Shown here one piece after another: positions 2,505 to 25,700 of a stretch of 32,000 bases of DNA. The DNA is from Planctopirus limnophila DSM 3776 (GTDB lineage Bacteria > Planctomycetota > Planctomycetia > Planctomycetales > Planctomycetaceae). Location: the NCBI RefSeq assembly GCF_000092105.1, contig NC_014148.1, positions 1,290,001 to 1,322,000 of the forward strand, written 5' to 3'. The number at the start of each line of letters is the position of its first letter. Position 1 is the first letter of the stretch. The notes below the pieces were generated by a model, which worked only from the letters and a program-made list of their open reading frames with translations, was not told the origin of the DNA and did no database searches. Made by a program: the position numbers and the translations under genes.

Positions 2505-2680
2505 ATCCCGTGAGTTTTCCAACGAGGTAAGAGGGAAGTCGGCGAAATTCCGACACAGGGCCGCTGCTGTGATCAGCTATTGATCTGTTCATAATGTCAC
2601 TGCCCACGGATGATCACTCCGGGGTGGGAAGACGAACAGATCCTCATGCTGTCAGTCAGAAGACCTGCCAGAACTTTGCT
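2505..2680 (+). promoter_or_regulatory. Cobalamin (B12) riboswitch aptamer
   Basis: Conserved core blocks read directly from the sequence: AGGGAAGTCGGCGAAATTCCGACACAGGGCCGCTGCTGT (2531-2570), a B12-box variant GTCACTG (2596-2602) followed by GGGAAGAC, and AGTCAGAAGACCTGCC (2654-2669). It lies upstream of a cob operon on the same strand. The outer boundaries are approximate. Confidence 0.85.
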
Positions 2681-2860
2681 GATCGGTGTCTCGGACACAG
2701 GCTGCTGATCGGAGTGATTTGAAGTCAACATCTTGAGAGTTCCCCATTGCCGGAGTCAGGTCACTTGATCCGACTGGCTGCAATCAGGAGATCTCAGGGC
2801 TGATTCTCTTTGCGCTTCGATCGTCCACCTGCACGAGACTTGGTTGTGCCCTCGTCCTGA

Positions 2861-3436: not shown

Positions 3437-3439
3437 GAA

Positions 3440-4501
3440 TTGTCGCAAGATCATCGTCCTCAACCGCTCACGAATCAGGTGATTCGTGAGCATCTTGCTA
3501 GTCTTGCTAAACCGCCGGGAAGTCTGGGCCGACTCGAAGATCTCGCCTTTGAACTCTGCCGCATCCAGCAGACCTTGCGACCAGTCTCCTCGCCACGCAA
3601 ACTGATCGTGTTCGGCGGAGATCATGGCGTCATCTCCGAAGGTGTGACCGCCTGGCCCGGCGAGATCACGCAAATCATGCTCGACACCATCGCCAAGGGG
3701 AAAGCAGCTTCCAGCGCTCTGGCCATGGCGACTTCGACCTCATTGGAAGTGTTCGATGTCGGCTCCTTTCGTGGCGGAGCTTTGCGACATCAAGGTTCGT
3801 CCTCGGTCCGTCGAGATTACTGGATGCTGCCGGGGTCGCGCAACCTGGCGCAACAACCAGCAATGACCGTCGATGAACTCGAGCAGGGACTGACCGCAGG
3901 ACGACAGATTGCCCGGGAAGTCGCTGCTCAAGGTTTTCGAATTGTGGCCGGTGGTGAAATGGGAATTGGCAACACCACTCCCGCCGCTTGCCTCACGAGC
4001 CTGATTTGTAACGAAAGTGGAGCACTCGTCGTGGGTCGCGGCGCCGGCGCTGATGACGAAACACTTCAGAGAAAAACTCAAGTCGTTACTCAGGCTGTCG
4101 AGCGCGCACGACAGCACGGGACGGGTCAATTGCGAAAACAACTCGCCGAAGTGACTGGTGTCGAACTGGCAACTCTGGCAGGCTTTTTTGCAGAGTCATC
4201 GCAACTCGGGATGGTGGTGATTCTTGATGGATTTATTGCCACAGCAGCGGCTCTCATGGCCGAAGTTCTCTGGCCAGAGAGTCGTCGCAACTGGATTGCC
4301 GCTCATTGTTCGACAGAACCAGGTCATGCCATTGCACTCAAGTTCTTACAGCTCGATCCTTTTCTCAATTGGCAGATGCGACTGGGTGAAGGGACAGGAG
4401 CCCTGCTGCTGATGCCCATGCTCGATGCCGCCTGTGCCATCCTCTCCGAGATGACCACGATCGCCCAGTTGCAGACAGAGTTGGTTCATTCCAGGACATA
4501 A
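3440..4501 (+). CDS. cobT: Nicotinate-nucleotide--dimethylbenzimidazole phosphoribosyltransferase
   Basis: 353 aa with a TTG start directly after the upstream stop. N-terminal LAKPPGSLGRLEDLA and the signature GGEMGIGNTTPAA are typical of CobT/CobU-type DMB phosphoribosyltransferases. Confidence 0.9.
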   Translation: MSQDHRPQPLTNQVIREHLASLAKPPGSLGRLEDLAFELCRIQQTLRPVSSPRKLIVFGGDHGVISEGVTAWPGEITQIMLDTIAKGKAASSALAMATSTSLEVFDVGSFRGGALRHQGSSSVRRDYWMLPGSRNLAQQPAMTVDELEQGLTAGRQIAREVAAQGFRIVAGGEMGIGNTTPAACLTSLICNESGALVVGRGAGADDETLQRKTQVVTQAVERARQHGTGQLRKQLAEVTGVELATLAGFFAESSQLGMVVILDGFIATAAALMAEVLWPESRRNWIAAHCSTEPGHAIALKFLQLDPFLNWQMRLGEGTGALLLMPMLDAACAILSEMTTIAQLQTELVHSRT

Positions 4502-4547
4502 GGAGCCGGTTGACTGTGTGGCCAAACAGCGGGTAGCTAAACAGCGA

Positions 4548-4671
4548 GTGGCTGGGGTCAAACGTCCTCGTTTGCCCCCAGGTCGCTGGACTTCGATCAT
4601 TGAAAGCTCCATGCCATGCTTGCAGCTCCGAGCCTTTGTGCCATGCTTGCAGCTCTGGGCAAGCATGCTTG
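4548..4671. repeat. Mosaic REP/BIME-like intergenic repeat (family B hairpin + 1.5 copies of family A hairpin)
   Basis: Family B: GTGGCTGGGGTCAAACGTCCTCGTTTGCCCCCAGGTC (4548-4585). Family A: a partial copy GCCATGCTTGCAGCTCCGAGCC (4613-4634) and a full copy TTTGTGCCATGCTTGCAGCTCTGGGCAAGCATGCTTG (4635-4671) with the 9-bp stem CATGCTTGC/GCAAGCATG. The same modules recur at 5635-5776, 6614-6652 and 10294-10468. Confidence 0.85.
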
Positions 4672-4767
4672 TTAATCTCTCCACGCCCCATGACTTCCCA
4701 GAAACATAGAGGTTCGCCTCCAACGACAATTCATCGCTGAGTTCACCCATCGATCAGGAAGTAGGAC

Positions 4768-5604
4768 ATGTCCCGCTGGTTATTCGAATGGCATGCACTC
4801 ATGTCAGCAATTCAGTTTCTGACACGCATTCCAGTCCCCGGCGGCATGCATCAGCCAGGCGCCGATCTGGCCATTCTGCAACACTCAATCATCTACTATC
4901 CGCTGGTCGGTGGCCTGCTGGCATTCCTGACGGGCACGGTCTACGGTCTGGCCTGTTTTGCTTGGATACCGCTGGTGGCTGCCCTGCTGGCACTGGCCTT
5001 CGAAGCGTTCACCACCGGTGGCTTTCATGAAGATGCCGTGGCTGACAGTTGTGATGCCTTTGGTGGAGGCTGGACCAGGGACGATATCCTCCGAATTCTC
5101 AAAGATAGCCGGGTGGGCAGCTACGGTGCTCTGGGGCTGATTCTGGCCATTACTCTCCGGGCAAGTCTCATCAGCAGTCTCGTCGTGACACCTGAAAAGT
5201 TACTGCTGGTCGTGGCCCTGGTGGCCAGTTCGGGTGCGATTGGCCGCTGGACGATTCTTGTCATGCGGACACTCTATCCACTGGTCAGTGGTCGCGATGG
5301 CTTATCGAAAGATATTGCCGGTGATGTTCGACCGGGAATGTTTCTGGCAGGGACCTTGTGGCTCTTGCCCACCTTGATATTTGTGTTCACCGTAACGCTG
5401 ACAACTGCTGCCGATCAGTGGGAAGTGATCACGATCAGCGTGAAACTGGCTGCGGCTGTGTCCCTTTCTGCCATCTGCGGATGGCTCTGGGGCCGATACG
5501 CAGTTCAGAAGATCGGCGGCCTGACAGGCGATGTCCTCGGCTGCGGCTGTTACCTCGGGCAGATCATGACACTACTGGTGCTGACAGCATCGATTCCTCG
5601 TTGA
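4768..5604 (+). CDS. cobS: Adenosylcobinamide-GDP ribazoletransferase (cobalamin synthase)
   Basis: 278-aa polytopic membrane protein with the N-terminal FLTRIPVP motif and the HEDAVADSCDAFGGG block characteristic of CobS/CobV. It sits between cobT and cobC. Confidence 0.88.
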   Translation: MSRWLFEWHALMSAIQFLTRIPVPGGMHQPGADLAILQHSIIYYPLVGGLLAFLTGTVYGLACFAWIPLVAALLALAFEAFTTGGFHEDAVADSCDAFGGGWTRDDILRILKDSRVGSYGALGLILAITLRASLISSLVVTPEKLLLVVALVASSGAIGRWTILVMRTLYPLVSGRDGLSKDIAGDVRPGMFLAGTLWLLPTLIFVFTVTLTTAADQWEVITISVKLAAAVSLSAICGWLWGRYAVQKIGGLTGDVLGCGCYLGQIMTLLVLTASIPR

Positions 5605-5634
5605 TTGCCAAAGTTAGATATGCCATCACTACGA

Positions 5635-5776
5635 CTTTGTGTGCCATGCTTGCAGCTCTGGGCTGTCTATTACACACCTTGTCATCCAATCTTGGGCGTG
5701 GTCTTGGCGTTTTGATGCCACATCTGATAACGGCCGGGTGGCAGGGGTCGGATGTCTTCATCCGCCCCCTGGTCAC
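5635..5776. repeat. Mosaic REP/BIME-like intergenic repeat (family A half copy + family B hairpin)
   Basis: CTTTGTGCCATGCTTGCAGCTCTGGGC (5635-5663; the 3' arm of the hairpin is missing) and CGGCCGGGTGGCAGGGGTCGGATGTCTTCATCCGCCCCCTGGTCAC (5731-5776). Confidence 0.85.
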
Positions 5777-5841
5777 TAAAATTCGCAAGCATGCCTGATA
5801 GACTCTCGACTCGCTATGACGTTCCGCGATGGGTATGAGAT

Positions 5842-6390
5842 ATGCCGTCACTGCTATTGCTTCGCCACACGACCGTTTGTGACTCTTATCGCGGCATCTG
5901 TTATGGCCAGAGCGATATTCCTCTACGTTCGACCTGGCAGGACGATTTCTTCCGGATCGCACAGAACATTTCCTCACAGAAGCCATTTGATGGGCTGTAC
6001 TCCAGCCCACTCAGTCGCTGTGCGAAGCTGGCCCATACACTGGCCGAAAAGATGGGCCAAGCTGTGCAGTTCGATCATCGTTTGATGGAAAGAAACTTTG
6101 GCGCCTGGGAACTCCAGCAGTGGACTTCCATTTATGAAGCCACAGGTACAGCCATGGATGGCCTCATCGACCAGCCCGAAACCTTTGCCCCGCCGGGAGG
6201 TGAAACCACTCGTTCGTTCGCTGATCGAGTTTGGGACTGGTGCCAGTCACTTCCGACTCATGGACGATATCTGGCTGTGACCCACGGTGGTTGCATTGCC
6301 GCCATACGTGGATTGTTACTCGGACTGGAAGTTCGCGCGTGGCTGGAACTCATTCCTAACCCGGGCGAAATTGTTGAAGTCAAGTGGTAA
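5842..6390 (+). CDS. cobC: Alpha-ribazole phosphatase (histidine phosphatase family)
   Basis: 182 aa. The N-terminal LLLLRHT (RHG-type catalytic motif) and the later VTHGG are typical of the phosphoglycerate-mutase-like histidine phosphatases. Its position after cobT-cobS supports the CobC call. Confidence 0.8.
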   Translation: MPSLLLLRHTTVCDSYRGICYGQSDIPLRSTWQDDFFRIAQNISSQKPFDGLYSSPLSRCAKLAHTLAEKMGQAVQFDHRLMERNFGAWELQQWTSIYEATGTAMDGLIDQPETFAPPGGETTRSFADRVWDWCQSLPTHGRYLAVTHGGCIAAIRGLLLGLEVRAWLELIPNPGEIVEVKW

Positions 6391-12118: not shown

Positions 12119-12751
12119 TTAAGAGACTGACGAAAACCTCTTTGCTGCTGAATAGTTTAGACTAACTTTCTCATCAATATGCGATAGCAGAGAGCTGCCA
12201 GGGCCAGATAATTGCAGGCGTGGATGATCTGCTGATGCCGGTCGTAGCGAATGCGGAATCGGCGCAGCCCGCCGAGCCAATTGATGGTACGTTCCACCAC
12301 CCAGCGAATTTTCCCCAGTCCACTCCCATGAGCAGTGTCTCTGCGCCGAATGTGGGAGATGATGCGGCGGCCGGAGTGCGACCTGCGGCAAACCGGACTG
12401 CGTGTATCGCTTCTTGGCTCGGAAGACGTTGCCCACCGCGTTGGTGTTCGATGATGACAATGATGATCTGATGCGGTGTGTCGATGCGGATCCGGCGTAG
12501 AACGCTCTCTCGGAGCAGCCGCCATCATTGCCACCCAACCGAGCGAAGGGAACGACTGGATACCGAGACGTGGGGACAACGGAAGCTGTGATCGGCCTCC
12601 TCGGCTCCGCCCTTCTGTTCTGGGTCGCCAGCGATGCGGCCGACACAATCAGAGACAGATGAATAACTTCATATCTACTCAAGCGTGGACGCGAAGAAAG
12701 ACAATTTACCGGACTTCCCTTATCCCGCTGATCGTAGCCCGACACTTCTGA
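12119..12751 (-). pseudogene. IS5-family (IS427/IS1031-like) transposase remnant, multiply frameshifted
   Basis: The 163-aa frame ends in KIRWVVERTINWLGGLRRFRIRYDRHQQIIHACNYLALAALCYRIL, the conserved C-terminus of IS5-family DDE transposases. Upstream similarity jumps between frames: GNDGG in the 208-aa frame (cf. GYDGGKK) and RIRIDTPHQIIIVII in the third frame (cf. RKRHIxVDTxG). About 600 nt remain and no terminal IRs were found. Confidence 0.55.
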
Positions 12752-12940: not shown

Positions 12941-14098
12941 TCAGTTAGTGAAAGAGCATTGCGGAAAAGAACCCCATTTACGCAAGGCCGCTTCAATAAT
13001 GTCACGTTGACCACTCTGGACTCCCCTGGCCATCAAAATTCTACAGAACAACGCGCGATCTTCATCGCCTGGTTGCGTGGCCATTGAAATCAGCCTGAGG
13101 CACGGTGTTGTAATTCTGTTGGTTCCAACTTCTGCATCACTAAAACTCGCAACAACATCTCGTGCCACAAGTACGACATCTGCATCAACACTATTTAATG
13201 AAGCCAAAAGCCTTGCCGAGCACTCTCTCGCATGCACACTGGACTCACTCGACCGAAAGATCTCGCTAGCAGCTCCAGCTGCGGTGGTTGAAACCGGACA
13301 ACTCTTGATCACGAAAGGATGGCCAAGTATATTCGCGCAGGCACTCCTCACCTTCTCTGGCTGCATTCGATCACAATAAATCTTGTCACATACTTGGCCA
13401 AGATGCTTCCAACAGTCTACGGAAACCGACATCTCCACAATTTCAAATGGAGGTAGCCCTTGGCAAATCCCTTCTAATAGTAATGCTCGCCTCGAATCAA
13501 AAAGACTTGATGACGCAACCTTGTCAAGAATTCCTTCCAACGTAGGCGAGATCGACTTACTTACCAAAGACAACTGTAAGAGTAGGACACATCCAGATCT
13601 AGCGGATTCGTCAGGAACTAAAGGATCAAAAATCTCTTCAATAATCCTACGCTCAACTTCCTCTGGGTTTTTCATACCGTATGTCGCGAAATTAATACTT
13701 GCGGCTTTCGAAATTCGATCCCCATCCATGGCAAGAAATTCGACAGCTACCTCATTAACTAGTTCTCTGTTCTCAGCGGACTGTGCATACATCAGGGAAA
13801 GGCTGCACATTGCAATCCGCGTGTCCTCGGAAAATCGAGGGTTCACGAGAATCCCAATAGCCCTTCCGATCGGAAGGCCATCAATTGGCCTCTGTCGTAA
13901 CCAATGAGCCGCAAACTCTTCAGCAGTCGCTTCCGTTTCCGTATCTGCAGCCAATTGTACCACCTGTCCCGCAAGCAACAGACTAGTGTGAGAGTCGCAG
14001 AAACACGCACCCCAAAGCGCGCATAAGCTGATGGGTGTCGTAAAAAACCGATTTACAATAGACATCATTGGGCGTCCGTGTTGGCGTATGCAGATCAC
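12941..14098 (-). CDS. Hypothetical all-helical protein; candidate cognate immunity protein of the upstream RHS toxin
   Basis: 385-aa ORF starting 36 nt after the RHS stop on the same strand (alternative ATG at 14068). Lines I hand-counted are about 43% GC, against about 60% in the RHS core. The sequence is Leu/Ala/Ser/Cys-rich with a helical-repeat feel. No family was recognised. Confidence 0.6.
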   Translation of the reverse strand: MICIRQHGRPMMSIVNRFFTTPISLCALWGACFCDSHTSLLLAGQVVQLAADTETEATAEEFAAHWLRQRPIDGLPIGRAIGILVNPRFSEDTRIAMCSLSLMYAQSAENRELVNEVAVEFLAMDGDRISKAASINFATYGMKNPEEVERRIIEEIFDPLVPDESARSGCVLLLQLSLVSKSISPTLEGILDKVASSSLFDSRRALLLEGICQGLPPFEIVEMSVSVDCWKHLGQVCDKIYCDRMQPEKVRSACANILGHPFVIKSCPVSTTAAGAASEIFRSSESSVHARECSARLLASLNSVDADVVLVARDVVASFSDAEVGTNRITTPCLRLISMATQPGDEDRALFCRILMARGVQSGQRDIIEAALRKWGSFPQCSFTN

Positions 14099-14134
14099 TG
14101 GAACAGCTATGGTTGGAAGGCGTCGAAAAATACT

Positions 14135-17100
14135 CTAACATTTCTGCGGATTTTGCGGGCAAGGGTTGCCATCACTGTCTTTGCCCTGATTATTTGGCCT
14201 CCGCTCAAGATACTTGTCTAGCATCCCGGCTTTCTCACACACCATATAGGGGTACACATCCCTAAGGAAATGGCCAATCGGGTTGTCAATTGAATGTTTG
14301 TAATCGACGGTTCCCGCTCCTGTTCCGCATGTCAGAAGCTTTCCCCCATCGTCAAAGCAGCATTGCTGTCCTGGGACAACCAGTGCTAACCAGGGTAATG
14401 TGTTTAGAGACCTGAAACATGTCTTGCATCCCGGATGTGTTGCAACATCCGTCGGCGATTCCACCCACCTTACACGCTCCTTACCCGTCTCCAGCGAAGA
14501 CTGATTACAAGGGCATGGCTGTACTTTCTCACTCCAATCTAGTGGCGTTTCGGTCGCGTCCCATTCAGCCCAAGCCGCACACTCTATTTCACAAAGCTCT
14601 TTTGACTTGTTTTTGATGTCTTTGCCCAGTTTGTCAATGAAGTTCTTGATCTGCTCCGGTGTAGGTAACAGAGGTGGAGTAAAAATGAACGGATTTGCAG
14701 GTTTCGATGTCAATCCATATGGGTCCGTTGTATTGATCGGGCCGTTGTATGAATACATGTTGTTGCCGTCAATATACTTTGCAGTGTCGCGCTGGGCCCA
14801 CAGGCCCATCTGTGGCAGCATGATGCGAGTCCTAATCGAATAATATCCAATATCTAAATTCATCGCATAGCCTGAGGCTAGAATATCCCAGGGGCTGGTA
14901 TGGGCCATCGGTGAGAACCCTGATGACAGTGCTGTCGGGAAGCCGTACGGTGTGAAGGAATATCGCTCCGTCACTATAGATAAGCTATTGGTGATTGCAT
15001 CTACATTCCAGTTGGCATCTTGCAAAGCATATAAACGCTGAGAGCCTACTGTTAGCACATCCCTGTCACGGAGGATGCAGTTGTCTATGTTTCGCAACCC
15101 CCATACATATTCAACGTCAATATCGGGGCCTGCTTGTGCCGTGGTCGTTTCTATACACTGCCATCTGCTGCTGTAGTATTTGTTGCAAACCGACGGTGCA
15201 TCTCCGCCATTTGAGGAGGTGGCTGCAATTTGATAGGATCTGCCATCATACTGGTATAGAGAGATGACTTCCATGGCGCTCTCAACCTCTTCCTCCACTG
15301 TCACCAAACGGTTCCAAGCGTCGTAGGTCGCAGAGTATTTGTTGGTTGGGTTGTTTCCCTGGGGAATGGTCGTCATGTTGCCAGAGGAGGAATAGACGGG
15401 TTCCGCCCATGCACTGCCAACAGAGTTGGTGATGTCCGTGATCTCGTTGACTTCACTTGCCGTCCGCTCCTGCTCCAGGGTCCAGGTGGAGCCGTTGTCG
15501 GTTTCCTTGAACCCCTGCCAGTTCCCGGTGGCGTCCAGTTGCCAGCATTGGCCGAATGTTTCGCTTGTCAGCGCGGTGTGACCGACATTCAACGTGCCAC
15601 GAGCCATCGTCTTCAGACGCTGGATGGCGTCGTAGCAGTAGATCTCGTCGAATTCGGCACTGTTAGCCGTGGCCACCGGGTTTTCCCGCCAGATGCGGTT
15701 GCTGGCCCGGTCGTAGCCGTACTTGATCCGGTCGAGATCCATTCCTCCCTTGTGCCAACGGTTGTCCTTGATCCGGCCGAACCGGTCGAGGCCCGTGTAG
15801 ATGTCCCCCGTGTCGGGATCGTCGCTGGATCCAACGAGAGTCCATTGGATGCCCGGTTCGGGTGAATCGCTGATGACGAACGTTCTTTGGCCCAGGTACT
15901 CGTAATCGACGAGATGGGTGCTGTCATCGTCGATGATGGCCGCGACCCGGCTGAGTTGATCGGGCATGCTGCCGGAAGTTCCGAAGCTGTATGTCAGTTC
16001 CCGGCCGTTGGGGTATGTCAGCGATGTCTGCCGGATGGTGTTGTCGGATCCATCGGCGTAGCCCATCTGGACGCTGGGTGTCGACAGAAGTTCAACTTCC
16101 CCGTCGTGCGCTTGGAATGTCTGGATAGCTTGCCCGAAATCATTGTACATGGTCTGAACTTCATTGAGTGCGGTGCCGCTGCCCACGGTCGCATTGTCCC
16201 AGCTTGTGATGCGGATGACCAGACCTCTTTCGTCGAACGCCGTTTCGATCCTCTGCACCGTGTCGTCGACATCGGTGCCGAAGGCTGTCACGCGATCTTG
16301 AGTCTGGCGGCCCAACAGGTCGAAGTCGTACTGGTGGACCGTCCCGCCCTGGTCGGTCAGCTGCGTGACCTGTTGCTGGCGGTTGTACGTGAATTCCACC
16401 TGATCACTGCCACCCGTCGAGTCGGGATATATCTCAGCGACTTTGAGGAAACTGGCAGCGATGTCCGAATCGTCCAATGTGCTGCCGTAGGCGTAGGTGG
16501 TCACCTGATTGCCGGTGGTCGCATTGACCGCCGTCAACGTCGCGACTTGGCCATCCGGCGTGTAGGTGGTGAGGACGGTGACATCTTCATCGACCGAAGG
16601 ATCGCAGTCAGTGACGGGCCCCACGAACACGGAACTCGATGTGGGGTTCTGAATCCTGGAGATCTCCCGTCCCGCATCATCATAGGCGAATCGTGTCACC
16701 AGCTCGGCAGGGTCCGCGGTTTCAAAGAGATTCCCCGCTTCGTCATAGACTTGGCTGCTGACCAGCACAGTATCGGAGCGAACAGGAACTGTGTCGGGGC
16801 GTGTGAACGAGGAACCGCCGTTGGTACCGTAATTGGCGCTGGCTTGAGTGCGGCCAATGCCGTCGGCCCATGCTGCGGTATGTGTGACGCGTGCTTTTGG
16901 ACTGGTCTGCGGATCCCCCAAGACGCCTGTCTGGGTAGCAACCGCATCGTGGTATCGCTGCTTGGCAGTGATGGAGATGACATTCGAAGTCGAGTCGTAG
17001 GTCGTCTCGGTTTGCTCCAATACCGTATTGTTGATAACATCGAAAATGTCAGCGTAGGTCGCATCGGTACCGTAGCCGGAGTAGTTCGCGATGGCTCGAC

Positions 17101-20100
17101 CAATACCGTCGAAGGTCGTTTTACCGAACAGGGAGGAACCAGCAGGCAACGATTTCACAACATTGCCGCTGGCATCGTACCATGTGTTGGACACCAGATT
17201 GTTGCCAATCGTTCCCGTCGCCGGATCGACGCCATATTGAATCGACTGATAGGTACGGCCCTGGTTGTCGAATTTGGTCTCACTCTGGGCGATGAGGTTC
17301 CCAAGGATCGTAGTGTCATACTGCTGCTGGAGCGTGACCTGATCGAGGTTGTCGTAGGTCTTTTTGGCGAAGTAATCGATCTCGCCATCTGTCGTCACCT
17401 GTCGATTGCGCCAGTCGTAGCCATAGCTGGTGACGCGTATGGTGGAAGCATCAACATGCTGTGTGACCTCGGTCAGATTGCCATCGCCACCATCGGTGCC
17501 GCCATCGTATTGATTCGAGATGATGACCACCATGTTGTTGTCGGGATCGACACCGCCTCCAGTCGGATCCTGTTCCGTCGCCCCATCGTCGTTGGTGCCG
17601 ATGTAGGTGGCCGAGACGAGGCCACGGGCGTCGAAGACCTGAAACGAAATGGTGCCACCAGGAGTAACGGTCCGATTCCGCCGCTTCATCGCGTCGTAAC
17701 CGTAGGTCGTCTGGTCATAGTTCGTGCCGCTGACGCCGGTCCCTGAAGTGGGAATTGTGTGGTAGATCCGTTGGAACGCCGCGAGGCAACAATCGGTGTA
17801 TTCGTAGGTTACCCAGCGGGTGTATGACAACTGCGGGAACCCTCCCAACGGGACTGTGCCACCGGAATTCGTGGCGGCGACGTATTCGGCGAGACTGCCC
17901 GTGGTGGTGGAGGCGGTTGCCTGGATTCGTTCCAGGACCTTGCCTCCAGCATCGTGGAGAACGATGACAACTGGGTTGATCAATTCATAGCTATCCGTGG
18001 CGGGATTCCACCAACCTCTGGCCTGATAAACAACATGATTGACGTCGTCATAAACAGCATAACTTGCTGTTCGAATGACTGTCGCCGTGCCTTCGATGTC
18101 AATAAAATGCACTGGGCTAAGGGCGAGAACTGTGCGACCTTGATCATCAACCGTTAAGTCGGTGACAAGGTTCAAACCGCCACCTGTCGGAGTCGTCCAA
18201 CCGGCGGGAGCTCCTGATACAATTGTGGTGTTGACATCCTGAATCTTTTGGACAACCGCCCCTGTGGCTAAGTCGTAGACTGTATGAGTGATGTAGCCTC
18301 GCTCGTCCATGCTCCAGGTCATGCGACCGCGATCATCAAAGTACTCCTGGTTTGCCGCGGCGACACCGCTTCCATTTTGATCGGTCGGAATCACTGGGAG
18401 AGTGGTTGAGCGTTGCTTCATTTGAGTCGTGCCGTCGTACCAGGTGTACGACATTGTCGATTCAATGAGTCCGGTTCCGTCGTCATTGCGGAAGCGGGTC
18501 ATTTTCGAGACGGGATAGACCGTGGCTCCACCGGCAGTGCGCGAGGTGTATTCATAGGACAGCTGGGGAACTGGATCTCCCGCAGTACCCTGCTGAAGTG
18601 CCTTACCAGAGACAAACCCTGCCGCCGCACCGCTTCCTGTGGTGGTGTAGTAGCTGGTGGTCGAAATGAGGCCTTCGTCGGTTTTGAGTTCAATGTCGAG
18701 GTCAGCCGCTGTATCGTCGTAAGCGAGCACGGCTGAGGGGGATGCCTCCCATAGCACTCGATGATCGGTATCGTAATGATAGGCCGTGATCCAATGGTCG
18801 GATCCATCCGAGAAGTCTCGAATCAGTGGTTGTCCGATTGTATTGCTGTAGACTATTAACTCCGTACCGTCAGGATAAGTTTCGACAGTACGAGTCGCCC
18901 ATGCATTGGAGGCTCCATTCGAGATGCGGTTGGTGTAAGCGAATTCAAAAGTACGCGAACCTCCGTTAACGCGTTCCAAGGTCACACGCTTTTGCTCATC
19001 GTATTCAAAGTAATTGTCAGCGTAAGTTGCCAGGATGCTGTTGCTCGTTGTTAATGGATCAACACTGTTGTTGACCATCCTCTGGAAAGTGTCTGGTTCG
19101 ATCACATACTTGAGTGCATGAGCGAACCCATGGATATCTCCCGCCTTGTAGTAGCGGTAGTACATCGATTGAGTAAGCTCCCAGCCAGTACTGGTCGGTT
19201 CCTCCAATTCGACGAGTTCCAGATCACTCAGGCTACCGTTCGCTGTCGTACCATCGTAATAACCATACGTTGCCCGACGAACATCTTCCCAACCACCAGA
19301 GCCAAGTTCGCGGCGAAGCGTAGCGCTTGTCAAATTTCCTGATGTGGCATCGTAGGTGTAAACGAATGCTTCAGTCAGCACTTCCGCACCCACCATTCCA
19401 GTGCGGCGGATTTCGGCAATTTTGCCTGTCGGCGTGTAAGACAGCACTTCTGTAATGGCGCCTCCGGCTTCAACCATTCGAGCGAATGCACCGGAAGGTG
19501 ATGTGGTCTGGATGAAGTCATGAAACTCGAACTGAACACCATCTGCATAAGTGAGACGCAAAACGTGAGCAGAGGTGTCATGCTCCAGTCGAGAATTGCT
19601 GCCAAACATGGGTACGAATTGCGGAGTCGCTTTGTTGAACCAAAGTGAACTGGTTGAGGAGCGGATAACGACAACTTCTTCGACACCATCAACAATGTGT
19701 GGCCAGTTGAATACCAGCCAACCGAACCCCTGACCCACATTCGTCGGAGTGGTGAGTTGGTTGGTGTAACTGCGCTGATGCATCCAATTCGCACCGAATC
19801 CGTTTGAACGAACGTCGATGGAGGAGATTCGTAAGGCTCCGTTGGAATACTGCACCGGATTCGATGACTCTGTCGTCGGGCAATTCTGGCACTCTTCCTG
19901 TGAGCAGTCGCTGGGGGGTGTGGGAGTGAGGGGAGGCCCGCCACTTCCTGACGAAGAACTTCCCGAACTACCACTGGAACCACTGCTTCCCGAGGACCCG
20001 CTGCCGCTTGAATGGCTCGACTCCGACGAACCGCTCTCCGAAGAGGGAGAGGGGGTGCTGGAATGTGACGAGCTGGGCGAGTGGGAACTTGAGGGTGACG

Positions 20101-20455
20101 GACTCGAAGAATGGCTGGAAAGGGATTCGCTGGAGCTGGGGCTCGCACTGCTTTGCGAAGAGAGGCTCTCTGACGACGGGCTGGCCGAGGACTGGCTCAA
20201 CGAGGACGACGGCGTAGGTGAGTGGCTACTTTCAGAAGACAGACTTTCCGAGGAAAGGCTCTCCGACGATTCACTCGATGGAGGGATGGGGGTGGTGGAT
20301 GACGATGACGACGATGAAGACGAGTGACTACTTTCCGAGGACAGACTTTCGGAAGACAAACTCTCCGACGAAAGGCTCTCCGAGGACTCACTCGATGGAG
20401 GGACGTCCGAGTGGCTGGATTCGGAAGGGTAGTAGCTGCTGCTTTCGCCGGGCAT
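14135..20455 (-). CDS. RHS/YD-repeat polymorphic toxin (2106 aa) with Ser-rich N-terminus and unassigned Cys-rich C-terminal domain
   Basis: Many YD repeats are present (YGYDWRNRQVTT, FAYDDAGREISRI, YDFDLLGRQTQD, YGYDRASNRIWRE). The RHS-associated core ends in YSIRTRIMLPQMGLWAQRDTAKYIDGNNMYSYNGPINTTDPYGL, with DPYGL at 14711-14725. The ATG has an SD-like GGAG 8 nt upstream, and an in-frame TGA lies 6 nt upstream, so no N-terminal extension is possible. Confidence 0.95.
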   Translation of the reverse strand: MPGESSSYYPSESSHSDVPPSSESSESLSSESLSSESLSSESSHSSSSSSSSSTTPIPPSSESSESLSSESLSSESSHSPTPSSSLSQSSASPSSESLSSQSSASPSSSESLSSHSSSPSPSSSHSPSSSHSSTPSPSSESGSSESSHSSGSGSSGSSGSSGSSGSSSSGSGGPPLTPTPPSDCSQEECQNCPTTESSNPVQYSNGALRISSIDVRSNGFGANWMHQRSYTNQLTTPTNVGQGFGWLVFNWPHIVDGVEEVVVIRSSTSSLWFNKATPQFVPMFGSNSRLEHDTSAHVLRLTYADGVQFEFHDFIQTTSPSGAFARMVEAGGAITEVLSYTPTGKIAEIRRTGMVGAEVLTEAFVYTYDATSGNLTSATLRRELGSGGWEDVRRATYGYYDGTTANGSLSDLELVELEEPTSTGWELTQSMYYRYYKAGDIHGFAHALKYVIEPDTFQRMVNNSVDPLTTSNSILATYADNYFEYDEQKRVTLERVNGGSRTFEFAYTNRISNGASNAWATRTVETYPDGTELIVYSNTIGQPLIRDFSDGSDHWITAYHYDTDHRVLWEASPSAVLAYDDTAADLDIELKTDEGLISTTSYYTTTGSGAAAGFVSGKALQQGTAGDPVPQLSYEYTSRTAGGATVYPVSKMTRFRNDDGTGLIESTMSYTWYDGTTQMKQRSTTLPVIPTDQNGSGVAAANQEYFDDRGRMTWSMDERGYITHTVYDLATGAVVQKIQDVNTTIVSGAPAGWTTPTGGGLNLVTDLTVDDQGRTVLALSPVHFIDIEGTATVIRTASYAVYDDVNHVVYQARGWWNPATDSYELINPVVIVLHDAGGKVLERIQATASTTTGSLAEYVAATNSGGTVPLGGFPQLSYTRWVTYEYTDCCLAAFQRIYHTIPTSGTGVSGTNYDQTTYGYDAMKRRNRTVTPGGTISFQVFDARGLVSATYIGTNDDGATEQDPTGGGVDPDNNMVVIISNQYDGGTDGGDGNLTEVTQHVDASTIRVTSYGYDWRNRQVTTDGEIDYFAKKTYDNLDQVTLQQQYDTTILGNLIAQSETKFDNQGRTYQSIQYGVDPATGTIGNNLVSNTWYDASGNVVKSLPAGSSLFGKTTFDGIGRAIANYSGYGTDATYADIFDVINNTVLEQTETTYDSTSNVISITAKQRYHDAVATQTGVLGDPQTSPKARVTHTAAWADGIGRTQASANYGTNGGSSFTRPDTVPVRSDTVLVSSQVYDEAGNLFETADPAELVTRFAYDDAGREISRIQNPTSSSVFVGPVTDCDPSVDEDVTVLTTYTPDGQVATLTAVNATTGNQVTTYAYGSTLDDSDIAASFLKVAEIYPDSTGGSDQVEFTYNRQQQVTQLTDQGGTVHQYDFDLLGRQTQDRVTAFGTDVDDTVQRIETAFDERGLVIRITSWDNATVGSGTALNEVQTMYNDFGQAIQTFQAHDGEVELLSTPSVQMGYADGSDNTIRQTSLTYPNGRELTYSFGTSGSMPDQLSRVAAIIDDDSTHLVDYEYLGQRTFVISDSPEPGIQWTLVGSSDDPDTGDIYTGLDRFGRIKDNRWHKGGMDLDRIKYGYDRASNRIWRENPVATANSAEFDEIYCYDAIQRLKTMARGTLNVGHTALTSETFGQCWQLDATGNWQGFKETDNGSTWTLEQERTASEVNEITDITNSVGSAWAEPVYSSSGNMTTIPQGNNPTNKYSATYDAWNRLVTVEEEVESAMEVISLYQYDGRSYQIAATSSNGGDAPSVCNKYYSSRWQCIETTTAQAGPDIDVEYVWGLRNIDNCILRDRDVLTVGSQRLYALQDANWNVDAITNSLSIVTERYSFTPYGFPTALSSGFSPMAHTSPWDILASGYAMNLDIGYYSIRTRIMLPQMGLWAQRDTAKYIDGNNMYSYNGPINTTDPYGLTSKPANPFIFTPPLLPTPEQIKNFIDKLGKDIKNKSKELCEIECAAWAEWDATETPLDWSEKVQPCPCNQSSLETGKERVRWVESPTDVATHPGCKTCFRSLNTLPWLALVVPGQQCCFDDGGKLLTCGTGAGTVDYKHSIDNPIGHFLRDVYPYMVCEKAGMLDKYLERRPNNQGKDSDGNPCPQNPQKC
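14138..14710 (-). other. C-terminal (post-DPYGL) variable domain of RHS protein, 191 aa, 14 Cys, family unassigned
   Basis: The sequence after the DPxGL demarcation is TSKPANPFIF...CEIECAAW...QPCPCNQ...HPGCKTCFRS...GQQCCFDDGGKLLTCGTGAGTVDY...HFLRDVYPYMVCEK...NPCPQNPQKC. GC drops to about 35-48% in hand-counted lines, versus about 60% in the core. Confidence 0.7.
19931..20455 (-). repeat. Coding low-complexity / tandem repeat: Ser-rich N-terminal ~175 aa of the RHS protein
   Basis: The N-terminus reads MPGESSSYYPSESSHSDV, then PPSSESSESLSSESLSSESLSSESSHS (nt 20321-20401) and a second copy PPSSESSESLSSESLSSESSHS (nt 20219-20284). SQSSASPSSESLSS units, SHS/SPS units and (GSS)n follow. It ends at GGPPLTPTPPSDCSQEECQNC. 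Confidence 0.9.
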
Positions 20456-20537: not shown

Positions 20538-21527
20538 TCAGGCGACGCTGGCAACCATCGGTTGCAGCGATCCCCCTTCGTAGTAGCGTTCAATGGCGCG
20601 GATCACATCCTGCGGCGAGATCATGTGCATGCACTGTGCGATCTGAAGTTTTTCATTAACCTTTACTGGTCGGAGACACAGGCTTTGATCCTTTGAATCA
20701 CCGTCGCCGACAGGCTGACAGCGACTCTTCCAGCAACCGCCCTGATCACAGCAGGGAAGAGCACCGTTCGTGTGCAAAAACTGGTGGTGAGGATAGGCCT
20801 CCCAATGAGAAGGCTCTCGACCTCCTGCTATGACGACTGCCGCCCGATTCTTCGGGCGCCCTGGTTTCGTCTCAACCGCTGCAGCAAGATGCATGGCAAA
20901 GGTTACAGGGCAGACAACTCCATCTGCGTGGTACATTAACCTCACAAACTGGCGCACATCTGTTTTTCCAATAAGATTAATGACGCCTCTTAACGGCGGA
21001 TGCCAGTGGCCGGACTCACCGCATTGGACGAACTGAATTCGACCATGGAAGTGATCCACAACCTGCTGATAAAACTCAGGGTTCCACCATTTGGCAGTGA
21101 AGTCGAACTTGCCACCGGCCATCAAGATCCAGAAAGGCCCTCGATAACCAGTCTCTTCGACCTGGCTCATCCACGATTTTTCCAACGGGGAGAGGTGAAT
21201 ATCTCCTTTGAACACACTCAGTGGAATTTTCAGATCCAACTGTTGTTCCAAGAACTGAGCATAGCCGTGAATGAAATGATATGGGGCCGTATTGCTTGAG
21301 TTGATCAACGGGTAGTGCATATCAATGACACGCACGTCCGGATCCGCTTCATTAAATATCGAGACCCACGGATTGTGCTCCCACAGAGAGGAAGCGCTCG
21401 TGTCGACCGCCGTGAGGAATCGACCGGGATGCGCCCGATGCAGATCCCGAACCGCAGCAGTCATCATGACGATATCGCCGGGACTTAACCGACAGCGGAG
21501 CAGCAATCGTTGCGGCGAAGAAGGCAC
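20538..21527 (-). CDS. GT9-like (heptosyltransferase-fold) glycosyltransferase
   Basis: 329 aa. N-terminal RLSPGDIVMMTAAVRDLHRAHPG...LWEHNPWV resembles the GT9 N-terminal block. The C-terminal Cys-rich CCDQGGCWKSRC...LC...QCMHMISPQDVIRAI resembles the C..C...CM..I block of WaaC/WaaF-type enzymes. Its stop lies 82 nt upstream of the RHS start on the same strand. Confidence 0.7.
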   Translation of the reverse strand: MPSSPQRLLLRCRLSPGDIVMMTAAVRDLHRAHPGRFLTAVDTSASSLWEHNPWVSIFNEADPDVRVIDMHYPLINSSNTAPYHFIHGYAQFLEQQLDLKIPLSVFKGDIHLSPLEKSWMSQVEETGYRGPFWILMAGGKFDFTAKWWNPEFYQQVVDHFHGRIQFVQCGESGHWHPPLRGVINLIGKTDVRQFVRLMYHADGVVCPVTFAMHLAAAVETKPGRPKNRAAVVIAGGREPSHWEAYPHHQFLHTNGALPCCDQGGCWKSRCQPVGDGDSKDQSLCLRPVKVNEKLQIAQCMHMISPQDVIRAIERYYEGGSLQPMVASVA

Positions 21528-21610
21528 CCGTCGATCCTTCGAGGTGTCCGAAGCAGTGAATTTCTGTGAATTATTTTAGAACGGTAGTGACACATCTGGG
21601 AACAGTCAAT

Positions 21611-22597
21611 ATGAAATCCACCATGAATTCCCTTCGCCCTCGAAAGACACGACACATGGAATACTCGCGAGCCTTCGCAGTAATCTCGAATTCCTGCTAT
21701 TTTTCAGGGATTTTGGCCACTTTGGGAAGCATCTACGCCTACTACGGCCGCGACCTGCGAGTTTATGTCGTCGGGCATGGCCTCAGTGCCGCAGAGCGAC
21801 AAATCTTGCAATCTACTAATCTGGGAGCTTCACTTACACTAATTGATACCGAGGACTTTTCGCATCGACCGATCGGCTGCTGGGAAGCCAAGCAGCAATG
21901 CGCCAGCGAACTGGTGGGATCCGTCAAAACGATTTCGCTACTGGACGCCGATTTGATCCTGCTCTCCCGGATCGACGATGTCTTCGAGTTGGCCGAACGG
22001 GGTAAGATCGTGGCTCCGCTGGATTGCGGGTCGATCGGATTCAATACCGACTACGATATTTATTCACGTCGACTCGCAGGTTGTGTCCGACCCAACCTCA
22101 ATACGGGATTCGTGACGTTCCATACCCGAATGCATTGGGATCTCGTCGCCCTCTGGGCCTTTACCAGCCGGTTCGGTGCCTACTCGCCCGGCCGGGGAAT
22201 GCCCTTGAGCTTCCCCGGACATGGCGATCCGGGGATCTTCAACGCACTGCTCTGCCAGCTGCACAAGGACGACGCCGTGCATGTCCTGCCGGAGCGGACC
22301 TGGACGAATTCCGTGGGCTGGAACCGGGGGCATGGTCTGCGGATCGTGGCTCGTCACGGCCATCAGATCACCGCCGAACATCAGCCGGGAGGTCTTCGGC
22401 AGCGTGTCCTGCACAGCTCGGGTCCCAAATGGTGGACCCCGGAAGGACAACGGGCTTTCAGCTCCGCCGGTGACGTGTTGACCTGCTTCGAGGAGATGTC
22501 ACGCATCGCCCTCCCCAACTCCCCCGCCAGTGAGCGAAGCACGCCTCGCACGACGGAAGCACCCCCTTCCGAAGTCTCGCTGGCCGTCTCCACCTAG
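21611..22597 (+). CDS. GT8-like retaining glycosyltransferase (stand-alone paralogue)
   Basis: The DxD motif LLDADLIL, NTGFVTF, and HSSGPKWW (cf. GT8 H..G..KPW) are present. It is colinear with, and by eye at least half identical to, residues 1-285 of the next gene. By that homology the functional start may be the ATG at 21656 (MEYSRAF). The track start is a GTG at 21566. Confidence 0.8.
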   Translation: MKSTMNSLRPRKTRHMEYSRAFAVISNSCYFSGILATLGSIYAYYGRDLRVYVVGHGLSAAERQILQSTNLGASLTLIDTEDFSHRPIGCWEAKQQCASELVGSVKTISLLDADLILLSRIDDVFELAERGKIVAPLDCGSIGFNTDYDIYSRRLAGCVRPNLNTGFVTFHTRMHWDLVALWAFTSRFGAYSPGRGMPLSFPGHGDPGIFNALLCQLHKDDAVHVLPERTWTNSVGWNRGHGLRIVARHGHQITAEHQPGGLRQRVLHSSGPKWWTPEGQRAFSSAGDVLTCFEEMSRIALPNSPASERSTPRTTEAPPSEVSLAVST

Positions 22598-22723
22598 ACC
22601 CATGGCTCCCGCCGGAACGCCCCGAGGTTCCATGGTGTGACCAATTTGCTCTTCGACGACTACTGATTCACCTTTCCATCGCCAGCCCCACCACGAGCCC
22701 CAACAGCAGAGGAATCAAGCGTT

Positions 22724-25700
22724 ATGGAGTACGCCCGCGCGTTCGTCATCGTTTCCGACGATCGATACTTCCCCGGACTTCAAGCCGCACTGGGAAGTAT
22801 CCACGCCTACTACGGACAAGAGATCCGTGTCTTCGTCGTCGGTCATGGACTGACGGCACCGCAGGTGGAGTCACTGAAGAACCACCCGCTGGGATCCGCC
22901 ATTACCTTGCTCCGCACCCAGGACTTCGCCTCCCGGCCCAGCGGATGTTGGGAAGCCAAGCAGCTCTGCCTCAGCGAGCTGGTTGCGTCCGTGCGCACCG
23001 TCTGTCTGATGGACGCCGATCTGATCCTTCTCTCGCGGGTGGACGACATCTTCGAACTGGCGGAGCAGGGAAAAATCATCTCCTCGCGCGACGGAGAGGG
23101 GATGCAGTTCGGGCCCGAATACCAGGTTTACTCACCCGCTCTGGTGGGGCCGCGGCAGGACTACATCAACTCGGGATTTCTCATATTCGATCTTCGCCAG
23201 CACTGGGATCTCGTCGCCCTGTGGTCGTTCACGGCTCGCTTCGCCGGTTACTCCCCCGGCAAGGGTTGGCCCTTCGCATTTCCGGGACATGGGGATCAGG
23301 GGGTCTTCAACGCACTGCTGGCCCTCCAACAAAAGTCTGATTTTCTGCATGCTCTTCCGGAAAACACTTGGTGCAACTCTGCTGGATGGAAAGAGGGGCG
23401 AAAGGTCCGCGTTACACATCAGGAGGGGAACCGCTTGAGTGTGATTCATGAACCTGGCGGAGAACAGCAGCGAGTTCTGCACAGTTCTGGCCCTAAGTGG
23501 TGGACAGACGAAGGTCGCACTTTCTTCGCATCTGCTGGTGATGTCCTGCGATGTTTTGATGCTATGCGAAAGATCACCGAGCCAACGATGGGCTCAAACA
23601 AAAACCTTGGAATCAGTTCTCCCGAGGAGAGGTCAAAACCTGCGTTGAGTGTTTGTGTGGCGATCAAAAATCGCTCGAAAGTAAGTGTCGGGCTAGAAAG
23701 TCGGGAATTATTTCCCAACTGTATCCGCAGTCTGCTCAGTGCGTCGGCTGGCGGCTTGAAAATTGAACTCGTCGTGGTGGATTTTCAGTCGGACGATTGG
23801 CCACTCGAAGAGTGGTTCTCAAATTTGGTGGGTGACGTTGCTCATCAGTTAATCACTTTGCGGGAACCTTTTTCACGGGGGCGGGGACTCAATGTTGCAG
23901 CATCTGCTGCACGATCTGATCGATTGCTGTTTCTCGATGCCGACATGCTTGTTGACAATTCTGTGCTTGAAAGAGCCTACGAGGTCGTCAATTCTGGTCG
24001 AGTCTGGCTTCCCATCTGCGAATGTGTGAAGTCCGATGGAACCTTCGACAGTTGGGGTTTTTTGGGGAACGTGGCCTGTGATCGGGAAGTTTGGAATGCA
24101 GCAGGTCAGATTCCCGAGTTTTACAGTTGGGGCGGTGAAGACAATCTGTTTGCAGATCGCTTGCAATCCATCAAGCCGGGCATTCGCGAAGTCAGTCTCG
24201 GTTTCCGACATCAATGGCATCCCGAGTCGTTGCGACATGCTTACTACATTCGCCCTGCTCAGAGCGACTTCTTTCGAATAGATCAACAGGCTACAAGCCC
24301 AGTCCAGCAATTGTGGCGACTCTCAGCACATCACCCGGAATGGCAGGGAGAGATACAGTTCTTCACAACTGGACGAATGGGGCGTCCGGGAGGAATGTTT
24401 GGTAGTTTCCAGGCCTCTGCCGAACAACTGACCTTGCACTGGGATTCGGGACATTCTGATACATTTCGGTGGGATTCCACTGTCCAAAGATATGTGCATG
24501 ATCTGCTGGATTTTTGGTTGGAACCTTTCACTTCTCTGGAATCCATGGATATAGAACGTCTTTTGAACCGCCAAGTTGAAGCATTATCCCTAGAAGAAAC
24601 TCCTAAGTCGTTTAAGCACCTCACAATACCACTTCCGGATCTACTCTCGCGCCGCGATCTTTTGCCTCGAATTCTGGTCTTTAGTTCTGTTGGTGATCGG
24701 GGAATTGCTGTTAACTCGTGGCTGGGGATCTCTTCTGCACGACAGGATCGACCGTTTGATACAGCCATCGTCTATTATGGCAACTATCCGACCGGTGACT
24801 GGGCACAGGGACTCCGCGCACGCTCCTGCTATTTTGGGCGTCATCGTGGGGGTAAAATTCAAAATCTCTCTTGGCTAATAAAGCAGCATCCCACTTTGCT
24901 TGAAGATTATGACTACGTATTCGTTCTTGACGACGACTTACGCATTACGCCGGATATGATTGGGCGCGTGGTGCGAACGGCCCGGGAATTCGATCTCCCC
25001 ATCTGTTCACCTAGCCACGACTGGAGAGGAAGGATTTCCTGGCTCCACATGGGAGCCCGCGGAAGTGGTCGCCGGGCTGCTGAACCTCCTGCTGGAGTGG
25101 AGTTAACCAATTTCGTCGAAGTGACTTGCCCGCTCTTTGAGACAGATGCTCTTCGCGAATATCTGAATCACTTCCTCTGGTGCGGTTCTGAATTAACCGG
25201 TTGGGGTGATGATTGGTTGATGACGGCGGCCTGTTTCCAAGAGAGTCGTCCCTTTGGCGTGCTTCACAACATCACAATTTGTAATCCCAAAGATCGGCCA
25301 GGACCCAACCCCCAGCTTCGTGAAATTGATCAACTGCATGCGGTGGAAGAGAGGCTGACAGCCTGGAAGCGAGTCAAGCAACGATTGGGTGGCCGCCTTC
25401 CCGTCACAGAAGAAGTTCGCACGTGGCTACCTCGCCCACGCCTCCGCTGTGTCAATCTTCCACGAGCCACTGAGCGGAGAAAGAAGATCACTTGTGAATG
25501 GATCGATGGATTAGGATTCCCCATTAAGTTCTTTCCGGCATTTGATCGGCGGGAATTGGAAAAAGGCCGAAGTTTTTTCCAATACGAGGATTCAGCTGCC
25601 ATCAACAAGATCGGACGCCCACTTACAGCAGGAGAAATTGCTTGTGCAAGTTCACATGCTCTGGTAATACGTGAAGAAATGGAGTTCACGGGTCCTGAAG

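Follow-up and report, generated by a model that had tools for sequence, protein, structure and literature searches.

Evidence for an AMOP-type C-terminal cargo in a putative, divergent RHS-type polymorphic toxin of Planctopirus limnophila

We analysed a stretch of 32,000 nucleotides from Planctopirus limnophila DSM 3776 (NC_014148.1, positions 1,290,001 to 1,322,000; hereafter the window), in which a gene on the minus strand (14135..20455) encodes a protein of 2106 amino acids (aa) with features of the rearrangement hotspot (RHS)/YD-repeat polymorphic toxins. The 191-aa C-terminal region (CT) of this protein, encoded at 14135-14710 on the minus strand, is strongly supported by profile, sequence and modelled-structure comparisons as a bacterial member of the AMOP domain family and a true relative of animal AMOP. 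The original prediction for this locus, made from the sequence alone, had called the CT unassigned, which was wrong, as the AMOP profile matches above its curated cut-off. It had also mentioned, with very low confidence, a faint resemblance to AMOP, and here it was correct: Pfam, phmmer, profile and model evidence all agree. The explanation that we favour, with a little better than even confidence, is that the protein is a divergent RHS polymorphic toxin whose exchangeable C-terminal cargo would adopt a bacterial AMOP fold and act outside the cytoplasm.

The CT scored 40.6 bits against Pfam PF03782 (AMOP; gathering cut-off 25, E=3.6e-10), with CT residues 43-158 aligned to profile positions 4-130 of 143. 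No other Pfam family reached E<=1, and nothing relevant was found in NCBIfam. As a single sequence, the CT matched human isthmin-1 (ISM1, PDB 9C6T) at E=9.4e-9 (phmmer against PDB), and a profile of 47 bacterial sequences matched the same structure at E=1.2e-32 over profile positions 24-168 of 170. In this profile match all eight family-conserved AMOP cysteines aligned to ISM1 cysteines, and the motifs LP.CPC, C.RS, Q.CCY, LIT.G.GAGTP, H...DV.P and Y...RPPNNG..C were common to both. An AlphaFold2 model of the CT built from the 47-sequence alignment reached a pLDDT of 90.2 and a pTM of 0.83; this alignment was used instead of a three-sequence alignment, which gave an unusable model (pLDDT 58). 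When the model was compared with the PDB using Foldseek, the two 9C6T chains were the sole significant matches (9c6t_B, E=9.9e-8, prob 1.00, TM 0.60/0.52), the next match having E=0.6. The predicted fold has helices at its N-terminus, an antiparallel sheet at its centre and a further helix bearing the H...DV.P motif; the fold of 9C6T likewise combines antiparallel strands at its centre with flanking helices and "thumb" helices. By these comparisons, the AMOP-fold domain is placed at CT residues 40-184 (14159..14593, minus strand). It is preceded by a pre-toxin linker (CT residues 1-39; 14594..14710, minus strand), which has an NPF.F.PP motif and a predicted helix at residues 18-34 in common with the closest relatives. 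Among known toxin families, including nucleases, deaminases, ADP-ribosyltransferases (ARTs), peptidases, lipases, pore-formers and the Tox- and Ntox families, Pfam, NCBIfam and Foldseek gave no match. A search of the CT against profiles including PF03782 had been proposed as the check on its novelty; the confident match that it returned relocates the novelty and does not remove it, as AMOP has neither a known toxin role nor a known biochemical activity.

AMOP has been described as extracellular, roughly 100 residues long and containing eight cysteines, and is known from MUC4, Mesh, SUSD2 and ISM1/2 (PMC9818725), and the ISM1 structure contains four strictly conserved disulfides, C1-C8, C3-C6, C4-C9 and C5-C7 (PMC12000326). 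The CT holds 12 cysteines in 191 residues, compared with 11 in the 1910-aa core, an enrichment of about eleven-fold. The original prediction counted 14, a number too high by two; the cysteine motifs that it quoted are all present and themselves sum to 12. Eight of these cysteines are conserved in the family (C44, C66, C68, C98, C117, C118, C158 and C184). Across 96 bacterial domains, the presence or absence of cysteines covaried in the pairs that form disulfides in ISM1 (44-158, phi 0.69; 98-118, phi 0.76; 68-184, phi 0.33), and C66 and C117 were both near-invariant. This covariation provides independent support for a predicted ISM1-like disulfide topology in the bacterial domains. Compared with animal AMOP, the window CT has the extra cysteines C40, C95, C128 and C191. 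C40 and C95 are common to the closest relatives only and may form a subfamily-specific fifth disulfide, which we consider probable; C128 and C191 are essentially unique to the window protein. A cyanobacterial-type subfamily (L019:5001-5636, which is Synechococcus sp. PCC 7335 S7335_542, and P0065, P0067, P0091, P0104, P0118 and P0135) keeps the CPC motif, one cysteine of the CC pair and the last cysteine, and has lost all four cysteines of the C44/C158 and C98/C118 disulfides. Its members have acidic low-complexity tails and are followed by an 80-aa ORF (open reading frame) with a single transmembrane (TM) segment.

Several polar residues were at or near invariance in the same 96 bacterial domains: R100, Q116, D136 and Y167 in 96/96, H92 and H147 in 95/96 and D151 in 94/96. 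We compared them with animal-type copies from two proteins, ISM1 and P0010, the latter contributing ten AMOP copies to a total of 11. The animal-type copies keep R100, Q115, H147, D151, Y167 and R171, and H92, Q116 and D136 are each kept in one copy and replaced in the other ten. The substitutions in ISM1 and nine of the ten P0010 copies are H92 to K, N, A, I or L, Q116 to H or E, and D136 to N or K. P0010 is a giant animal-type protein of 7101 aa, in which the ten AMOP copies lie in tandem with vWD (GDPH site) and Sushi-like modules. The H92/Q116/D136 pattern suggests a putative active or ligand site specific to the bacterial domains. Because these bacterial-specific invariant residues lie in a hydrophilic, disulfide-locked domain of ~150 aa, we favour enzymatic or specific-binding action over pore formation. 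Since the model has no fold similarity to enzymes, the invariant polar residues are the sole ground for calling such an action enzymatic. A LAS-type zinc site (HxxxD plus His, as in M23/hedgehog) composed of H147-x3-D151 and H92 was considered and rejected as unsupported, since the motifs come in a different order and the folds do not resemble each other.

The identification of the rest of the protein as RHS-type draws on several pieces of evidence of unequal weight. Pfam RHS_repeat scored 21.9 bits against a cut-off of 22 (E=2.3e-4), TIGR03696 (Rhs_assc_core) scored 24.3 bits at aa 1861-1915, under its cut-off of 32.5 (E=3.3e-5), and TIGR01643 gave E=0.16. A strict YD regular expression matched the core four times with 0.4 matches expected, a result that is not very informative, and the same holds for a phmmer search of the core against the PDB, which matched no solved RHS structure. 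Homology to other large AMOP-ending proteins extends along the length of the core; these are the protein of locus L014 (34% identity, 1823 aa) and P0063, P0082 and P0093. Among them, at least P0063 has clearer Pfam RHS_repeat matches. On the combined evidence, of which the core homology is the stronger part, we classify the window protein as a divergent RHS-type toxin, an assignment made by sequence comparison.

The core closes with an RHS-associated tail (14711..14875, minus strand; translation SGYAMNLDIGYYSIRTRIMLPQMGLWAQRDTAKYIDGNNMYSYNGPINTTDPYGL) that ends in the DPYGL demarcation/autoproteolysis motif (14711..14725, minus strand). The demarcation stretch, ...NGPINTTDPYGL at 14711-14746, is of the PxxxxDPxGL type, and the core tail sequence ...RDTAKYIDGNNMYSYNGPINTTDPYGL constitutes a canonical demarcation motif. 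The coordinates originally assigned to DPYGL, with a C-terminal stretch of 191 aa after it, are exact. At the other end of the protein, the first ~180 aa (19916..20455, minus strand) form a low-complexity region with 53% Ser, inside which lies a tandem repeat of 15 bp in 3.9 copies (20330-20387; SESSESLSSE repeats). No Sec signal peptide was found at this N-terminus, and because the upstream gene ends at 20538 there is no space for a signal-peptide exon. The full-length AMOP-ending RHS relatives P0052, P0063, P0082 and P0093, unlike the window protein, do have Sec signals.

The composition of the locus changes toward the CT. GC content and GC at third codon positions (GC3) are 0.559 and 0.64 in the core (15301-20455), 0.49 and 0.47 in the last 575 bp of the core (14726-15300), 0.49 and 0.50 in the CT (14135-14710) and 0.477 and 0.44 in the ORF that follows it (12941-14068), within which GC reaches its minimum of 0.38 over a 100-bp window. 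Core tail, CT and downstream ORF together form a compositionally distinct cassette at 12941..15300 (GC 0.48-0.49, GC3 0.44-0.50). The original prediction described a fall from about 60% to 35-48% GC exactly at the DPYGL junction. There is indeed a drop (0.559 to 0.49), smaller than described and not at the junction: the shift begins ~575 bp (~190 codons) upstream of DPYGL, and the cassette boundary lies within the core tail. This displaced step is still compatible with cassette exchange, given that a piece of core tail is also part of orphan cassettes at other loci. Our results support the view that the CT serves an RHS-type polymorphic toxin as its variable C-terminal cargo and lies in a compositionally distinct cassette. 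Scans for promoters and terminators around the cassette and the RHS start performed no better than on shuffled sequence.

We then placed the CT within its wider family. A word-index homologue search with the CT alone yielded two proteins, and an exhaustive HMMER search was then used. Over 1.84 billion representatives of 50%-identity clusters, it returned 1033 proteins at E<=1e-3 and 256 at E<=1e-10. Context was analysed for the best 151 representatives, with domain scans on the 141 of them that were <=900 aa. The AMOP domain ends <=30 aa from the C-terminus in 128 of the 151, and Pfam AMOP matched 138 of the 141. The RHS-associated core TIGR03696 was found in 62/141 relatives, NF041261 in 17/141 and the core domain of extracellular contractile injection systems (eCIS), DUF4157, in 4/141; P0163 confirms this last layout, with eCIS_core at the N-terminus and AMOP at the C-terminus. 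DUF4157 is an N-terminal marker of proteins whose C-terminus is a toxin domain (PMC8213781). Members of the CT family occur on unrelated or distant cores and in orphan cassettes. Orphan cassettes made up of core tail and AMOP, each followed by a small ORF, were found at L001, L002 and L022, and at L020 a complete RHS-immunity pair is closely followed by such a cassette.

Sec-type N-termini were present in 25 of the 136 relatives with intact starts, including the four full-length RHS proteins named above. A recurrent mini-architecture joins a Sec signal directly to the final 40-60 residues of the RHS core (YY.P..GRW..RDP ... DPxGL), with AMOP after them, and is seen in P0027, P0035, P0040, P0050, P0059, P0096, P0106, P0112 and P0116 (e.g. 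L020:5001-5873). These proteins look like orphan cassettes turned into small Sec-exported proteins that retain the autocleavage motif. Genomic relatives came from Planctomycetota (Roseimaritima sediminicola, Pirellulaceae, Singulisphaera, Phycisphaerales), from Verrucomicrobiota, Lentisphaerota and Sumerlaeota, and from Cyanobacteria (Synechococcus PCC 7335, Scytolyngbya, Microcystis), and their source annotations all read "hypothetical protein" or "RHS repeat-associated protein". Some relatives pair AMOP with dockerin, He_PIG, OmpA or M23 domains. P0062 (661 aa), for example, has a signal peptide, a weak Peptidase_M23 match (E=2.4e-4) and a C-terminal AMOP, and another relative contains an OmpA family domain. 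The cell-wall-related domains in such non-RHS relatives give a faint hint of a role of the AMOP family at the cell envelope.

Genes downstream of the AMOP domain were surveyed by taking the first same-strand ORF after the AMOP gene at 21 loci, with 157 ORFs from the same loci as background. At least one hydrophobic segment of TM length was present in 15/21 partners versus 49/157 (31%) background ORFs (Fisher p=4.9e-4), and two to six such segments occurred in 10/21 partners, compared with at least two in 17/157 (11%) of the background (Fisher p=1.5e-4). Shorter signal peptides of the classical type are present in two further partners, those at L001 and L004, and fall outside this count. In orphan cassettes the partner ORF often overlaps the stop codon of the AMOP gene. 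The loci whose CTs are closest to the window CT are L001, L002 and L004 (46-49% identity). Their partners are related to differing degrees: those of L001 and L002 form one family (32% identity, E=3e-23), which the L004 partner joins weakly (hhalign probability 58.6%, E=9.5e-5). Because the downstream genes are enriched for membrane or exported proteins (15/21), a disulfide-bonded toxin acting outside the cytoplasm is the reading that we prefer for the CT. The original prediction had likewise proposed an oxidising, extracytoplasmic site of action, and this is still the best reading given the conserved disulfide pattern, the Sec signals of relatives and the membrane or exported partners.

In the window, the candidate immunity or partner gene is an ORF at 12941..14068 (minus strand) encoding 375 aa, which lies on the same strand as the RHS gene with 66 nt between the RHS stop codon and the ORF. 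The frame is open from a GTG at 14098, as originally described (12941..14098, minus strand; 385 codons). A likelier start is the ATG ATG at 14068/14065, giving 375/374 aa, and gene calls on two independent Logan assemblies give 374 aa. Its N-terminus, MMSIVNRFFTTPISLCALWGACF, is moderately hydrophobic (1.95 over 11 aa) and signal-peptide-like. No Pfam, NCBIfam or PDB sequence match was found for the ORF, and tblastn of all the surveyed partners against the window returned no homologue; no alternative small TM-bearing ORF was found near the CT. The proposal that the CT and this ORF form a toxin/immunity pair was not borne out beyond position, as the ORF has no homologue and no similarity to the partner family of the closest relatives. 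Taking together its position 66 nt from the RHS gene, its cassette-like composition, the length of the open frame and the lack of an alternative, we put the chance that it encodes the immunity protein at roughly even.

The favoured explanation would work as follows. By analogy with the family, the CT would be enclosed in the RHS shell in an unfolded state, and cleavage after DPYGL would be carried out by the aspartyl-protease-type core tail. After delivery, the 191-aa CT would fold at an extracytoplasmic site in a competing bacterium, either the periplasm or the envelope. The fold would be locked by bonds between C44 and C158, C66 and C117, C68 and C184, and C98 and C118, and probably also C40 and C95; the cysteine pattern is observed, and bond formation is inferred from it. 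A putative polar site composed of H92, R100, Q116, D136, H147, D151 and Y167 may then act on a membrane-proximal target in the envelope, with enzymatic action likelier than pore formation. The producer would be protected by an exported or membrane-anchored partner, whose gene stands immediately downstream. In the window that protecting partner would be the 375-aa orphan ORF with the signal-peptide-like N-terminus.

A number of observations weigh against this explanation. The window RHS protein has no Sec signal, and no PAAR or type VI secretion system (T6SS) neighbour was found in the window. Animal AMOP domains serve as structural or signalling modules and are not known to be toxic, and the CT model has no significant similarity to an enzyme or pore-former fold in the Foldseek search against PDB. 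Multi-pass immunity proteins are classically tied to membrane-active toxins, which speaks against the enzymatic action that we prefer for the CT. The partner loci are partly non-independent, since the partners at L007, L008, L009 and L011 belong to one multi-pass family. As for the 375-aa ORF, its N-terminus is only suggestive of a signal peptide, the protein matches only itself among 5.8 billion proteins, and it has no similarity to the partners of the closest CT relatives, either by BLASTP or by hhalign with two- and three-sequence profiles. It also exceeds the 80-300 aa typical of partners at the other loci, in line with the earlier remark that 385 aa is large for an immunity protein.

Several other explanations were weighed against the same evidence. 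The 375-aa ORF could be something other than the cognate immunity gene, that is, a passenger, an accessory or chaperone gene or a decayed gene, with the working immunity gene lacking or located elsewhere. This is a serious contender, to which we assign somewhat less than an even chance. It would account for an oversized ORF that has no homologue, no similarity to the L001, L002 and L004 partners and a weak N-terminal hydrophobic stretch. It accounts less well for the position of the ORF as the first on the same strand, 66 nt past the RHS stop, for its cassette-like low GC3, for an open frame of 375 codons, and for the identical gene called in two independent assemblies. Nor does the window offer an alternative small TM ORF nearby or a homologue of other partners, and immunity families are known to swap within a single toxin family. 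A quite different idea concerns the CT itself, which might be an extracellular binding or adhesion module, released or displayed for attachment to surfaces, algae or animal hosts, with the downstream ORFs unrelated or accessory. Bacteria of the Planctomycetes-Verrucomicrobia-Chlamydiae (PVC) group are often found on eukaryotic surfaces, the CT model resembles no known toxin fold, and AMOP is partnered with dockerin, He_PIG, OmpA or M23 in some relatives. The characterised AMOP proteins, moreover, all serve in extracellular adhesion or signalling (PMC9818725, PMC12000326). We nevertheless regard adhesion as unlikely. AMOP occupies the cargo slot after DPxGL in 62/141 relatives and the slot behind eCIS/DUF4157 in others, and it circulates in orphan cassettes with tightly linked small ORFs, whose strong enrichment for membrane proteins is a signature of immunity genes. 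The near-invariance of H92, Q116 and D136 in bacteria and their loss in animals likewise point to a bacterial-specific activity rather than a scaffold.

The target could also be eukaryotic, with the CT acting as a toxin at the surface of protist grazers, algae or animal hosts and possibly mimicking host AMOP. Homology to extracellular animal AMOP and a Cys-rich fold suited to the extracellular milieu are what one would expect of such a toxin, no T6SS genes lie nearby, and the family has an association with eCIS, several of which target eukaryotes (PMC8213781). Effectors directed only at eukaryotes usually have no linked immunity genes, however, and here 15/21 loci have a membrane or exported partner. 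The organisation of RHS orphan cassettes is typical of interbacterial competition (PMC3967940), and the bacterial domains retain residues absent from the animal copies, so they are not simple mimics. We consider a eukaryotic target improbable. Finally, the protein might be a conventional RHS toxin acting in the cytoplasm, as a nuclease, NADase or similar, with its cysteines binding metal and forming no disulfides. Most characterised RHS CTs do act in the cytoplasm, and CPC and CC motifs can bind metal, yet the eight cysteines match the four crystallographic ISM1 disulfides one-to-one and are lost in those pairs. Together with the Sec signals on relatives, the membrane or exported partners and the lack of any nuclease, ART or deaminase profile match, this makes a cytoplasmic toxin very unlikely.

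The architecture of the window protein is standard for RHS polymorphic toxins, and the new part is the identity of the cargo. With known RHS toxins (T6SS Rhs effectors, the Salmonella orphan Rhs cassettes and Tc-toxin TcC) it has in common a large, probable YD-repeat shell, the DPxGL tail, a variable CT, a GC-shifted cassette and a downstream ORF. Unlike them, it has a CT that appears disulfide-rich by its cysteine pattern and no PAAR, VgrG or T6SS context; its N-terminus is a 180-aa Ser-rich tract and not a known trafficking domain, and its repeat hidden Markov model scores are marginal. Compared with metazoan AMOP (PF03782; ISM1, PDB 9C6T; MUC4, SUSD2, ISM2 and Drosophila Mesh), the domain is alike in sequence, predicted fold, the eight cysteines and the inferred disulfide map. 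Metazoan AMOP occurs in TSR, NIDO, vWD or Sushi architectures, unlike the window domain, which is C-terminal on a bacterial RHS toxin after DPYGL and retains H92, Q116 and D136. A further comparison is with toxins of eCIS, marked by an N-terminal DUF4157/eCIS_core: the 4/141 relatives and P0163 noted above follow the rule of DUF4157 at the N-terminus and toxin at the C-terminus (PMC8213781). This likeness concerns the family and not the window locus, where the protein has no DUF4157 and no eCIS genes were found. The teneurins offer a parallel of another kind, in that an animal cell-surface domain has a more diverse bacterial counterpart at the tip of a YD/RHS toxin and residues invariant in bacteria are lost in animals. 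The C-terminal Tox-GHH of teneurins and other animal extracellular domains have reportedly been traced to bacterial polymorphic toxins by Zhang et al. 2012. In teneurins, though, the entire YD shell was retained, as was a nuclease fold that can still be recognised, whereas animal AMOP proteins and the window RHS protein have only the tip domain in common.

The first AMOP structure, published in 2025, was reported as a "distinct fold", for which no biochemical function is known, and bacterial homologues are not mentioned (PMC12000326). We found no link between AMOP and polymorphic toxins, Rhs or Planctomycetes in open-access papers or bioRxiv preprints, although a description elsewhere is possible, and the word AMOP is absent from the toxin-domain surveys of Zhang et al. 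2012 (Biol Direct), Geller 2021, Danov 2024 and the Nachmias preprint. The bacterial family of putative AMOP toxin tips is large and apparently undescribed. InterPro almost certainly tags such bacterial proteins with IPR005533 already, as expected because the Pfam match is above threshold, and the bare observation of a bacterial AMOP is open to anyone.

More tentatively, and with rather less confidence than in the account of the window protein, we propose that AMOP was originally a bacterial toxin fold acting in the periplasm, with a putative H92/Q116/D136 site. Animals would have acquired the domain and stripped the site to obtain the scaffold of MUC4, SUSD2, Mesh and isthmin, and the cassette would have spread mainly in the PVC group and cyanobacteria. 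If a bacterial origin is true, it would reveal a new class of envelope-targeting activity and provide a first handle on the ligand of the AMOP pocket. Proteins with AMOP domains are studied medically, among them MUC4 in pancreatic cancer, SUSD2 and the adipokine and angiogenesis factor isthmin-1. The family described here connects a poorly understood animal domain with a large radiation of putative bacterial toxins and singles out specific residues as candidates for AMOP's ancestral activity. A disulfide-dependent family acting at the envelope would join the polymorphic-toxin repertoire, and AMOP may be a further instance in which animals took over part of a bacterial weapon as an extracellular domain.

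The RHS gene is adjoined by a glycosyltransferase cluster at 20538..28451, comprising a GT9 protein, a 1122-aa multi-glycosyltransferase protein, a GT10 fucosyltransferase and an epimerase; its neighbours also include an EVE-domain protein and an LPG-synthase-like membrane protein. Toward the start of the window, a cobalamin riboswitch (Rfam RF00174, 73.5 bits) at 2488..2686 on the plus strand precedes a cobalamin operon at 2861..6390 (plus strand; DUF6580, CobT (DBI_PRT), CobS and a CobC-like His_Phos_1 protein), which represents ordinary chromosomal context. Just downstream of the cassette, in a GC-rich stretch (0.56-0.61), an ORF at 12119..12745 (minus strand) encodes 208 aa that are rich in Arg, Ser and Pro, with a composition atypical of coding sequence and no family match. 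The region gave no Rfam or tRNA match, and a gene was called at the matching position in two Logan contigs (L023 and L024). Beyond the glycosyltransferase cluster, a second RHS-tail protein of 626 aa is encoded at 30086..31966 (minus strand), with a fragment of an rve-family integrase downstream of it at 28589..29197 (minus strand). Residues 75-189 of this protein align to the tail of the main core (34% identity, E=2e-5), ending ...NDPVNQTDPSG, and its C-terminal region of ~437 aa has no Pfam match. The gene may represent a toxin cassette, either orphan or independent, that carries a further, unassigned CT.

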